The notes under the pieces: model-generated
The model's input: the letters and a program-made list of their open reading frames with translations, nothing else
The model's database searches: none
Told to the model about the DNA's origin: nothing
Position numbers and translations under genes: made by a program
Assembly: GCA_029717555.1 (NCBI GenBank)
Contig: JAMDHS010000107.1
Location: 45,332-65,331 of the forward strand
DNA length: 20,000 bases
Origin: Peribolospora baueri
Taxonomy: Eukaryota
Direction of reading: 5' to 3'
Shown: one piece after another, positions 12,849 through 16,625 of the stretch
Layout: the number at the start of each line of letters is the position of its first letter
How positions within the stretch are numbered: the stretch's first letter is position 1

Positions 12849-13673
12849 GGTCGGCGTGTCGTGTCAATGAGGCAAGGGCGAGGGCATGCGGACGAGGAGA
12901 TGAGGCGGGACGTCAAAGCACAACAGAGAAGCCAAAGCAGTGCGGAACAGGCGGTGCGGTGCGGTGCGGTCGGTCGCGCCGGAGGCCCCTAGGTGAAGGA
13001 GAGGACGAGGAGCGAGGAGGAGAGTGAAGACGGGCGGATTTGTCGATTCTACGCGACGGAGAATATTGGAGATTCTATGTGCCGCCCTGACGAGGTCTGA
13101 TCCTGGCGAGGGCGGGCGGGTGAGGCGGGAGGGGCAAGAAGAAAGATATAAGTGAAGAAGAAAAAAAGAAGAGAAGGGGCGAGGAGGAGAGGGATCTACA
13201 TGAACGACGGACGACGAAGAGGTCGGTCTCGTCGGTCGCCTCAAGACGTCGGTTTGTGGTGGTGAGAAGAGGGCGGTCGCGGATCGAGGATCGCTACCCC
13301 GCCGGGTGCCGAGCGCCGCAGCGCGGGTTAGGGTTATGGGCTCACAGCCGGCGATCCGTCCGGCGGCATCGTCGCGACGATCGTATTTTGTATGTGTATA
13401 TCCTCCCTGTACTCGCGCACGCATACGCCGATCGTGTATACCAGCCCGTCCGGCCACGTGCTTGCTCGCCCGCACGTGAGCGCCGCCTCGGATCGGGGCG
13501 GCCTATTGCGGTGGATGACGAGGAGCATTTGGGATTTCCTGATTCCCTTGTCCTACTTGCACTCCGGACCGTCGTCCTTCTTGCCCCTCCTTCTTTCTTC
13601 TTCTTTATCATCTCCTCCTTCTCCCAACCTTTTTACACCCTCTTGCCGCTTACCCCCCGTCGCTATCATCGTC
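12849..13673. promoter_or_regulatory. Divergent promoter/5'UTR region shared by the Lcb3-like gene (-) and the hexokinase (+)
   Basis: Head-to-head ATGs at 12848 and 13674. The + strand is purine-rich at ~12990-13220 and pyrimidine-rich at ~13540-13670, so each gene has a CT-rich leader. GGGTTAGGGTTA lies at 13325-13336. Confidence 0.6.
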
Positions 13674-16625
13674 ATGGCCGAGCCAGTCCCCACGCGCTCC
13701 CCCGGCAGCCGCCCTGGCAGCCGCAGAGGCAGCTTGACCCTCTCCTCGTACAGACGCGGCTCTGGCACCGAGAAGATGGCCTCCGGACATGTGTGTATCC
13801 GATGCTTCTATTTTGCTTGTCTCCTTGGCCGCCGTCGTGGCTCGGAAGACGCCAGCGCCGCGTTCCATCGTGGCCCGAACTGATTGCTAAGCTCGTCGGC
13901 TTGGCGGGCGCGGCGTCCACATCCGCTGACAACGGGTATCGTCCCCTCTTTTCTTTTTTTTTTTCGCAACCCCTTCACTTTGCTCACCTCCTGCTCTTTG
14001 CGTCTGGTCGTCATGTCCGACACCGCCGCCCCACCTCGCCGCCCCATGGTGGTCCGTTGCCCCTACTTCGCCGACCCCCCACCAACACGCTCCTTGTCCT
14101 GCCCTGCTGCGCCCACCTATACTGCTGATGATGCACCCTCGCCCACGGCGTCCGGCGCCTCTCTGGGATTGGCGCTCACGCCATCCTCCATCGCCGACCC
14201 TGACGATCGACCTTTCTGCTTGCCCTCGCGCAATGGCGACAATGGCGTCGACCGCTCTACATCCACTCACACAACTCCGCCTTCCTCTCCGCCACCCTCT
14301 CCGCCACCTCTACCATTCTTGCCCACCGGGGAAACTCCGGGATCACCTGTGTTCTACCCATCTCCGTCTACACCCGTGCCTCCACGATTTCACTCCCTAC
14401 CGCCCTCTCGCTCCTTCACGCCCGTTCGACGACGCCGCCTCGTACGCAAGGTGTACACCTGGCACACGCGGACCCACGAGAACGAAGAGCTTCCGCACGC
14501 GACGAAGAAGGACCTCTTCGAACATCTCAAGGAATATGAGAAGCTCTTCACCGTCACGCCACAGAGGCTGAGGATGATCGTCGACGCGTTCGTCGACACG
14601 CTCGAGACGGGACTAAAGAAGCATGGACAGACTGTCGTGAGTGGTTCATCATGGGATGATTGACGTGGAGGGGACAGCGGTCGCAAAAACGCGGCCGCAG
14701 CGCCCGCATCGCCGCCGCCCTCTCATCTCATGCGTTGTCTGCCCTCCCATTCATCTAGCCAATGATCCCTACGTGGGTCTTCGGATGGCCTTCCGGTAAA
14801 GAGGAGGGCTCTTACCTCGCTATCGACCTCGGTGAGCCCGCATGACCGGTTTCCAATGGAAAAACACGCCGTGTTCGTCGGTGGCCTGACTATATGCCTC
14901 TTCTTGTCTCACCAGGCGGCACCAATCTCCGTGTCTGCCATGTCCAGCTCAAAGGCGAAGGTAAATTCAGCATCACGCAGTCCAAATTCCGTCTCACGGA
15001 CGAGCAGAAGCAATGCAACGGGCAGGAGCTGTTCGACTTTTGCGCAGAGTGCCTTAAAACGTTCATCGAGGACAATTTTGGAAGCGAGGGGCAGGACGGT
15101 GTCATCTTCGAGGAGGAGATCGCGCTCGGGTTCACGTTCAGCTATCCTTGCGAGTGAGTTACCTTCCCGCTCGGTCCGTATGCACCGGGTCATCTCCCTC
15201 TGACCGATGGTCACCGGTTCGCCCCGCTACACAGGCAGGATCGCATCGACCACGGAAAGCTGATCCGCTGGACCAAGGGCTTCGGGAACCCGAACACGGA
15301 AGGGAGGGACTGCGCTGCCATGCTCATGACCAGCTTGGAGAAATACGTACGTGTCGAGCGAGCGGGCAGTCGCGTTTTCTCACGTGTGGGAGAGGTTCCA
15401 GCTCACATTGCCTCCTCGTCCCTCGGCCGCATGCTTCTGCACGTCCACAGCACGTGCCCATCAAGCTCACCTCCATTATCAATGATACGACGGGAACGCT
15501 CATCGCTTCCAACTATGTCAACCCGAAGACCAAGATCGCTTGCATCTTCGGCACGGGTTGTAACGCGGCGTACATGGAGCACGTGGCGGACATTCCTAAG
15601 ATTGCGGACAAGAAGATTGATCCGAAGTATGATATGGCCATCAACTGCGAGTGAGTTTTTTTGGGTCCTTGCCAATTGGCCGCCCGCGGTCTGGCTCACT
15701 GCACTCTCGACGTTCGGCAGATACGGTGCTTTCGACAGCTTCAAGCACGAGCACCTCCCCCGGACAAAGTACGACATGTCGATCGACCTCGCCTCGAATA
15801 AGCCCCACGAGCAAGCTTTCGAAAAGATGATCTCGGGTCTCTACCTCGGCGAGATCTTCCGCCTCGTCATCTGCGAGCTTGTCGACGAGGGTGTCCTCTT
15901 CCTCGGTCAGAACACGTACAAGATCGAGAAGCCCCACGCGTTCGACACCGCTTTCTTGAGTCTGATCGAGAGGTATGTGGTGTGGTTCCCCAAGCCTTGC
16001 GATTCGTCTGAGACTCGTCTGAGTTAACTCGTCCCTCGTTCCGTGTCTCAGCGACCCGACCGAAGAACTTTTGACGGTCACTGGCCTCTTCACCCACTTT
16101 TTCGTCCTCGACACCACCATCCCAGAGCGTCAGTTCCTCCGACGCCTCGCCCAGCTCATCGGCACGCGCGCCGCCCGCCTCAGCGCGTGCGGAATTGCCG
16201 CCCTGTCGTCCAAGATGGGCTACGTCGAGAGGGGAGAGGAGATCGCCGTTGGGTGTGACGGCTCCTTGATCAAGAACTATCCTCATTTCGGCGATCGGAT
16301 TCACGAGGCGCTCGTCGACATTTTCGGCGAGAAGGGCAGGTGGGTCGGCCGGGTCGAGCGGGGCCGAGCTGTTTTTCGTTGTCGTTCGGATGGACACGAG
16401 TCGGTCTGAGCGATCTGCCCGTTTCTCCCCTCACAGGCTCATTCAAATCACCCACGCCGAGGACGGCAGCGGCGTCGGCGCCGCGCTCATCGCCGCCATG
16501 ACCGAGGCGAGTGCTTCCTCCATCTCTTGTACTCGCCGCCGTGTTTCGCTAACGTCGTCACCCGCCTCCCGTCGCGTTGCTGTCTACAGGAGCGCAAGGC
16601 CGACGGCATCCACCCGGAACTCTAA
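13674..16625 (+). CDS. HXK: Hexokinase, about 523 aa. Exons 13674-13790, 14451-14636, 14759-14831, 14916-15153, 15235-15346, 15451-15650, 15721-15972, 16052-16339, 16437-16506, 16590-16625.
   Basis: Spliced translation contains PMIPTWV, LAIDLGGTNLRV (phosphate 1), LGFTFSYPCEQ...LIRWTKGF (sugar binding), IINDTTGTL, IFGTGCNAAYME, INCEYGAFD, FEKMISGLYLGE, GCDGSL and AEDGSGVGAALIAA. Exon phases are consistent and sum to 1572 nt. The exon 1 join is less certain than exons 2-10. Confidence 0.95.
13791..14450 (+). other. Unusually long hexokinase intron 1 (660 nt, GTGTGT...AAG) containing a 557-nt AG-free zone
   Basis: Phase-0 join gives MASGH|VYTWHTRTHENEELPHATKK. The last upstream AG is at 13890-13891 and the next is at 14449-14450. 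Confidence 0.7.
16507..16589 (+). other. Non-canonical GC-AG intron (last hexokinase intron, 83 nt)
   Basis: GAG|GCGAGT donor, GCTAAC branch at 16548-16553, TACAG acceptor. Splicing yields ...AAMTE|ERKADGIHPEL*. Confidence 0.85.

Follow-up and report, generated by a model that had tools for sequence, protein, structure and literature searches.

A hexokinase gene of the basidiomycete fungus Peribolospora baueri carries a predicted first intron of 660 nucleotides (nt), the last 557 nt of which, up to the acceptor, hold not a single AG dinucleotide on the coding strand. The gene lies in a stretch of 20,000 nt (here termed 'the window'; assembly GCA_029717555.1, contig JAMDHS010000107.1, positions 45,332 to 65,331 of the forward strand), and all positions below are counted from the first letter of that stretch. 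We suggest that the absence of AG reflects selection on the choice of the 3' splice site, in an intron where at least part of the branching would occur hundreds of nt upstream of the acceptor, after the manner of the 'distant-branch-point' introns of vertebrates.

AG is excluded from the 3' part of intron 1

The borders of the AG-free zone can be read directly from the letters: the last AG before it occupies 13890-13891, and the next one, at 14449-14450, is that of the acceptor itself. An initial annotation of this DNA had reported that no AG occurs between these two points, even though 17 GA dinucleotides are present, and had argued that base composition could not be the cause. Both figures proved exact on recount, and the argument is borne out by several backgrounds, all of them drawn from the one 20-kb window. 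The zone is 68% pyrimidine (72 A, 244 C, 108 G and 133 T) and should hold 14.0 AG on the basis of its mononucleotide frequencies, against the zero observed (Poisson P of about 8e-7). Its other dinucleotides include 17 GA, 8 AA, 22 GG, 45 AC and 18 AT; GA, AA and GG stand near their expectations, leaving AG as the sole purine-purine pair that is missing. When A and G were shuffled among the fixed purine positions, a procedure that preserves the purine/pyrimidine pattern of the zone (with its 47 purine-purine steps), AG occurred 11.3 times on average and at least twice, and not one of 200,000 shuffles was free of AG.

Comparison of the zone with its surroundings leads to the same result. Counted as a gap between successive AGs it measures 558 nt, the longest such gap of the window by a factor of 3.6, the runners-up being 156, 151, 131 and 120 nt long and the maximum on the opposite strand 163 nt. 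Of 1556 control windows of 557 nt from the two strands, 85 had a pyrimidine content of 62% or more, and 60 of them were located outside the intron; in these 60, the ratio of observed to expected AG had a median of 1.03 and a minimum of 0.64, and each contained at least 11 AG. Nor is AG avoided in the interiors of the gene's other eight introns (16 observed vs 21.5 expected) or in the first 101 nt of intron 1 itself (3 vs 3.7). Thus, AG is specifically excluded from the zone, and composition is no explanation for its absence.

The exclusion is also vulnerable to mutation, in that 179 of the 1671 possible single substitutions in the zone (about 11%) create an AG; a neutral sequence would therefore remain free of AG only while very young. 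We know of no function for a bare AG inside an intron other than that of a 3' splice site. A search of 13300-14700 for repeats revealed no tandem or dispersed structure, just four short direct-repeat families and one inverted pair, all at the level of chance; a scan of 13300-14800 against the RNA families of Rfam gave no match at E values up to 1; and folding of intron 1 gave no significant structure (z-score 0.37, with 14 of 20 shuffled sequences folding at least as well).

The predicted intron and the gene that it interrupts

The identity of the gene is established by Pfam matches to two of its downstream exons, at 14918-15151 (PF00349, 80.3 bits) and 16053-16337 (PF03727, 76.5 bits), both above the curated cut-off. 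The placement of intron 1 relies upon comparison with two relatives. One of them, L001, was the single related locus returned by a metagenome search with a two-sequence alignment, and is an intron-less, Pfam-supported hexokinase open reading frame (ORF) of 525 codons; the other, P0068, is a named hexokinase of Violaceomyces palustris. Exon 1 aligns with residues 1-36 of L001 from Met to Met (BLASTP E 8e-6), while the window ORF that runs into exon 2 aligns with the same protein only from ORF residue 147, to L001 residue 38 onward. In the case of P0068, residues 17-35 of exon 1 match residues 13-31 with 15 of 19 identical (79%; BLASTP E 2e-8), and exon 2 matches from residue 35 onward. Homology to both proteins picks up again exactly at 14451. 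Since L001 is mRNA-like, it is uninformative on the presence of the intron in that relative. The same locus harbors a second, unrelated ORF of 108 codons directly upstream of the hexokinase ORF (L001 30-356), with a stop that overlaps the region of the hexokinase ATG; possible explanations are a chimera made in assembly, a bicistronic transcript or a structured leader of unusual length.

A broader search points to the same position. The 208-residue ORF was searched exhaustively, with phmmer, against 1.84 billion representatives; of the 59 matches at E values up to 0.001, 56 begin at query residue 144 or later, residue 147 being the codon at 14451; the remaining three, which begin at residues 115, 125 and 137, align low-complexity sequence. 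From among these 59 matches, 29 relatives were examined, and in 13 of them the motif RRGSG stands 8-12 residues ahead of HT(R/S)T inside one ORF. Nine of the 13 continue past the exon end into V-V-(S/R/C) and then into unrelated sequence, as in read-through of a GT donor, which suggests that they are likely to be ORFs called on genomic DNA. The arrangement of RRGSG and HT is also found in six of seven named basidiomycete hexokinases examined, the exception being a Microbotryum protein. In the window, RRGSG lies 660 nt upstream, in exon 1, and removal of the intron restores the conserved spacing between RRGSG and WHT(R/S)TH. The proposed intron has GT and AG ends and falls in phase 0, its removal gives a conserved in-frame protein, and exon 1 resembles the coding core in its G+C content at third codon positions (GC3; 0.84 and 0.80, respectively). 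The junction of 13790 with 14451, which the initial annotation had proposed, is thus well supported by homology, and on this evidence we consider it very likely that intron 1 is real. Two further relatives, P0006 and P0018, were considered as possible cases of read-through of an intron end at the same position, and were set aside: P0006 may have a contiguous, diverged N-terminus (it contains RRVELTL), and we make no claim of an intron in any relative. The closest named matches to the most conserved exon come from Tremellomycetes, rusts and Ustilaginomycotina (68-77% identity), and the N-terminal motif is nearest to proteins of the Ustilaginomycotina.

Several features of the gene outside the zone can be described here. 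Basidiomycete hexokinases (P0068, P0077, P0092, P0156 and L001) share a pair of N-terminal RRxS motifs (RRGS..., then RRGSG) shortly before WHT(R/S)TH, and in the window both motifs are encoded by exon 1. They look like the sites of basic-directed (PKA-type) kinases. In Saccharomyces cerevisiae, phosphorylation of a serine close to the N-terminus regulates the hexokinase Hxk2. Upstream of exon 1 and extending into its start codon, a CT-rich tract at 13525-13681 forms the second-longest AG-free run of the window (156 nt), and is probably a core promoter of the CT-box type together with the 5' untranslated region; inside the intron, at 13942-14015, the pattern recurs, with a comparable T-rich tract leading to an identical run of five bases and an ATG. 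At the other end of the gene, the last intron (16507-16589, 83 nt) seems to be of the GC-AG type (GCGAGT...CAG). Use of a nearby GT, at 16511, as the donor shifts the frame and gives more than 40 residues without a stop, whereas the GC donor gives a 13-residue tail after ...AAMT, which equals the C-termini of P0001, P0068 and L001 in length and has R, (D/E) and G at matching positions.

Branch-site candidates and the weighing of explanations

Candidate branch sites were identified with the consensus CTNAY and a relaxed form, YTNAY, both derived from the gene's eight other introns and from what is generally established about branch sites. Those eight introns, which here supply the branch distances taken as typical of basidiomycetes, are 70-122 nt long, so that intron 1 exceeds them by 5.4 to 9.4 times (in agreement with the initial estimate of about 5-9 times); they have AG-free tails of 24-77 nt and acceptors that are all CAG or TAG. 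Seven of them have a CTNAY or TTAAC at 22-45 nt from the acceptor; intron 1 has no CTNAY closer than 181 nt. Intron 1 has seven CTNAY motifs, with the branch A at 13883, 13929, 13986, 14128, 14178, 14203 and 14269; measured from the acceptor they span 181-567 nt, they sit at the zone or within it, and the intron has none upstream of the zone. The last AG before the zone falls only 7 nt after the A of the first of these motifs. Because AGs this near to a branch point are bypassed, according to excerpts of two studies (PMC1431707, PMC2991248), the zone begins exactly where branch-competent sequence begins.

The second motif, CTGAC with A at 13929, is followed by the only strong pyrimidine tract of intron 1, and the 25 nt after this A (80% pyrimidine, with 13 T) are the best of ten branch candidates; a consensus branch motif with an adjacent pyrimidine tract (13942-13965) is thereby present at the upstream end of the zone. 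The signals at the downstream end are of a different quality. The acceptor is an AAG, and the 25 nt before it are 60% pyrimidine, as in two other introns, and contain 4 T, the fewest of all nine introns. The GCTGAC motif, the tract and the AAG acceptor (Table 1) all lie where the initial annotation had placed them, and its reading of the intron as one with a distant branch point holds as far as the layout is concerned (first CTNAY at the start of the zone, pyrimidine tract after the CTGAC at -521, AAG acceptor), with the branch site itself no more than a candidate. Its statement that no convincing branch motif lies near the acceptor was too strong: there is no CTNAY within 181 nt, yet TTCAC occurs at -32 and again at -58 (A at 14392), and both copies fit the relaxed YTNAY, as does the TTAAC that is the sole branch candidate of intron 7. 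The idea that splicing of intron 1 might be 'regulated' is pure speculation.

Table 1. Positions, in the window, of the features of intron 1 and its flanking exons.
Feature	Position	Strand	Description
Hexokinase exon 1	13674..13790	+	39 codons from the start ATG; two RRxS motifs; ends ...RRGSGTEKMASGH
Intron 1	13791..14450	+	660 nt, GTGTGT...AAG, phase 0 (predicted)
First CTNAY of intron 1	13880..13884	+	CTGAT, A at 13883; last AG only 7 nt past this A
AG-free zone	13892..14448	+	557 nt, 68% pyrimidine; 3' part of intron 1 up to its acceptor
Candidate distal branch site	13925..13930	+	GCTGAC, A at 13929, 521 nt from the acceptor G
Pyrimidine tract	13942..13965	+	24 nt; T-richest stretch of intron 1
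In-frame ORF in intron 1	14013..14450	+	146 codons, Pro/Ser/Thr-rich; judged non-coding
Candidate proximal branch site	14415..14419	+	TTCAC, A at 14418, 32 nt from the acceptor G
AAG acceptor	14448..14450	+	First AG past the zone; sole AAG among nine introns
Hexokinase exon 2	14451..14636	+	Starts VYTWHTRTH...

In the explanation that we favour, a spliceosomal intron would separate the conserved regulatory N-terminal peptide of the hexokinase from its catalytic body, and selection on the choice of the 3' splice site would hold the last 557 nt of that intron free of AG. Ligation after branching would take place at the first usable AG downstream of the branch, and an AG anywhere behind the seven CTNAY motifs would be taken as a false acceptor, with destruction of the reading frame. 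At least part of the branching would occur at the upstream motifs, above all at the CTGAC with A13929 and its adjacent 24-nt tract, and exon ligation would then reach the single AAG over an unstructured, C/U-rich spacer hundreds of nt long. The argument for such partial use of upstream branches is indirect: the complete exclusion of AG over 557 nt implies that upstream branching is frequent enough for selection to see, and, if it is frequent, those events must be either resolved at the only AG or wasted. Whether productive splicing uses upstream branches, 181 nt or more from the acceptor, which would make this a vertebrate-type distant-branch-point intron in a fungal gene, we judge to be evenly balanced. 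That a constitutive hexokinase intron is spliced from a branch about 520 nt upstream, the first AG being found across half a kilobase of unstructured C/U-rich RNA, appears possible but doubtful.

A number of considerations weigh against long-range splicing of this kind. The two TTCAC motifs could act as ordinary proximal branch sites, and the lack of significant structure in intron 1 means that no fold was found that would shorten the distance between branch and acceptor. Excerpts of one study report that in Schizosaccharomyces pombe spacings of 30 nt or more are spliced poorly and are found in about 40 of about 5250 introns, and that in S. cerevisiae acceptors lie within about 10-45 nt of the branch (PMC9508853); such distances, of tens of nt, lower the prior for a distance of half a kilobase in a fungus. 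Gooding et al. caution, in the part of their paper drawn on here, that a long AG-free zone is in some cases the by-product of an AG-free element while the branch point is proximal (PMC1431707). Finally, the intron is absent at this position in at least 13 relatives and, as judged from these sequences, is either gained in this lineage or lost many times.

These points feed into three other explanations, the first of which accepts the intron and moves its branch site. The productive branch would be one of the two TTCAC motifs, at -32 or -58, and the zone would serve only to guard scattered consensus motifs and tracts against cryptic acceptors, or, in a variant, would be what stayed tolerable while the spacer grew; no ligation would take place over long range, and upstream branching would be rare or its products discarded. 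We regard this as credible, if rather unlikely. The TTCAC at -32 sits at a canonical distance, the comparable TTAAC is the only candidate that intron 7 has to offer, the fungal spliceosomes studied so far act over tens of nt (PMC9508853, in excerpt), and the gaps between successive branch-like motifs do not exceed 142 nt, so that avoidance of short-range decoys could span most of the zone. However, rare upstream branching would exert weak selection, yet not one AG occurs in the 557 nt, even where the nearest CTNAY or TTCAC is more than 60 nt away. In addition, no other intron of the nine has proximal signals as weak as these, with CTNAY lacking, 4 T in the 25 nt before the acceptor and AAG as that acceptor. 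A neutral by-product is also conceivable, in which the intron derives from AG-poor, C/T-rich sequence that was inserted or arose by slippage and is too young to have acquired AGs, its splicing being ordinary. The 13 or more relatives with both protein motifs in one uninterrupted ORF are as expected for an intron that is lineage-specific (or lost many times), and a 369-nt AG-free zone caused by a repeat is described in the available part of Gooding et al. (PMC1431707). Intron 1 and exon 2 both start with GTGT (13791-13794, GTGTGTA; 14451-14454, GTGTACA), and a direct repeat at both borders fits intron gain by insertion with a short duplication, although the hint is a weak one, as the GT donor dictates two of the four bases. 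Against such an origin stand the lack of tandem or dispersed repeats around the intron, the restriction of the deficit to AG alone, with its mirror dinucleotide GA and all other purine pairs as frequent as expected, the normal AG content of the window's other pyrimidine-rich DNA, and the ease with which single substitutions would have created an AG. A neutral origin is thus, in our view, improbable.

The remaining alternative holds that the zone is protein-coding, with translation starting at ATG 14013, which follows a second CT-rich tract of promoter-like character, and that AG is scarce because of the amino acid content of a Pro/Ser/Thr-rich extension to a hexokinase of 630 residues. It is true that 14013-14636 forms one open frame continuous with exon 2, and that the same five bases, together with a pyrimidine-rich tract, stand ahead of this ATG and of the one that starts exon 1. 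However, the relatives have the conserved RRGSG peptide where the extension would sit, and the Pro/Ser-rich extension was rejected on codon, homology and synonymous-resampling evidence. When the 145 amino acids were kept and their codons redrawn, from the gene's own usage, that of a neighbouring ORF of 1285 codons or both, 11.6-15.6 AG were expected, and none of the 5000 draws in each of six runs was free of AG. The codon log-likelihood per codon is -0.37 in the frame of the ORF and -0.37 and -0.43 in the other two frames, as against +0.41 for the hexokinase core in its proper frame; the value for the ORF also equals that of the core read out of frame. The GC3 of the zone is 0.62, compared with the values of 0.80 and 0.84 given above for core and exon 1. 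Pfam contains no family that matches the 146 residues, and no homologue among the phmmer matches, L001 and P0068 covers the 146-codon stretch. Most of the zone is open in two of its three frames, as is to be expected of DNA that is A-poor and free of TAG. Taken stop to stop, two long ORFs (13884-14663, 259 codons; 13930-14571, 213 codons) overlap in different frames over the intron, likewise a by-product of that composition and liable to mislead gene callers. We therefore hold a coding role for the zone to be very improbable.

Relation to known introns and significance

In vertebrates, an AG exclusion zone is accepted as the footprint of a distant branch point, and such zones go together with regulated exons. 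By our analysis, the layout of the hexokinase intron matches the operational definition of a distant-branch-point intron given in excerpts of Gooding et al. 2006 (PMC1431707): an AG-free tract that ends at the acceptor measures 557 nt, where at least 100-150 nt are called for, and the zone is, as far as the 20-kb window can tell, not a mere AG-free repeat or effect of composition. Examples from the same excerpts are exon 3 of alpha-tropomyosin, with a branch at -175, exon 11 of PTB, with a zone of 381 nt and a validated branch at -351, and the Fugu counterpart of the latter, with a zone of 590 nt and a predicted branch at -566 (PMC1431707). The hexokinase intron resembles these, so far as they are described there, in its AG-free tract up to the acceptor, in the consensus branch motif and pyrimidine tract at the upstream end, in a zone length of the same range and, apart from the TTCAC at -32, in the poor signals of the conventional last 40 nt. 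It differs in that its host is a basidiomycete fungus, the other introns of the gene measure 70-122 nt, there is no sign of an alternative or mutually exclusive exon, and the branch site is here only a candidate.

Fungal precedents for a second step that reaches an acceptor farther away than usual exist in the yeasts. In S. pombe, 3' splice sites distant from the branch point require Sde2, Cactin/Cay1 and Tls1 (PMC9508853, in excerpt), and S. cerevisiae introns use RNA folding to shorten the distance between branch and acceptor (PMC3239191, in excerpt). In those cases, however, 'distant' means about 20-45 nt, whereas the consensus motifs of the hexokinase intron lie 181-567 nt from the acceptor and the spacer is without significant structure. 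A fungal branch site placed excessively far from its acceptor is also known from the S. pombe telomerase RNA TER1, which undergoes spliceosomal cleavage by the first step only, the branch being too far from the acceptor according to the portion of the study cited (PMC5378181); there, in contrast, the product of the first step is the goal, while a functional hexokinase mRNA needs exon ligation.

AG exclusion zones and distant branch points are therefore already known, and what is new is their setting and scale: a fungus whose introns measure about 100 nt, with the zone in a constitutive intron, the first of a gene for a housekeeping enzyme. No fungal AG exclusion zone, and no fungal distant branch point of this kind, was found in the open-access literature that was searched. 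At a practical level, the long spurious ORF that is in frame with exon 2 can lead gene callers to a false, Pro-rich N-terminus for this hexokinase. More broadly, the clean zone of 557 nt in this housekeeping gene suggests that a first-AG rule may police the long introns of fungi over hundreds of nucleotides. If the favoured explanation is true, the distance of about 520 nt from branch to acceptor would be by far the longest known in fungi, and the vertebrate-style, AG-independent mode of splicing from a distant branch would be open to the spliceosome of a short-intron fungus. The position of the intron between the twin RRxS peptide and the body of the enzyme, combined with weak second-step signals, means that its removal could throttle the output of hexokinase, and might depend on second-step factors such as Slu7, Prp18, Sde2 or Cactin.

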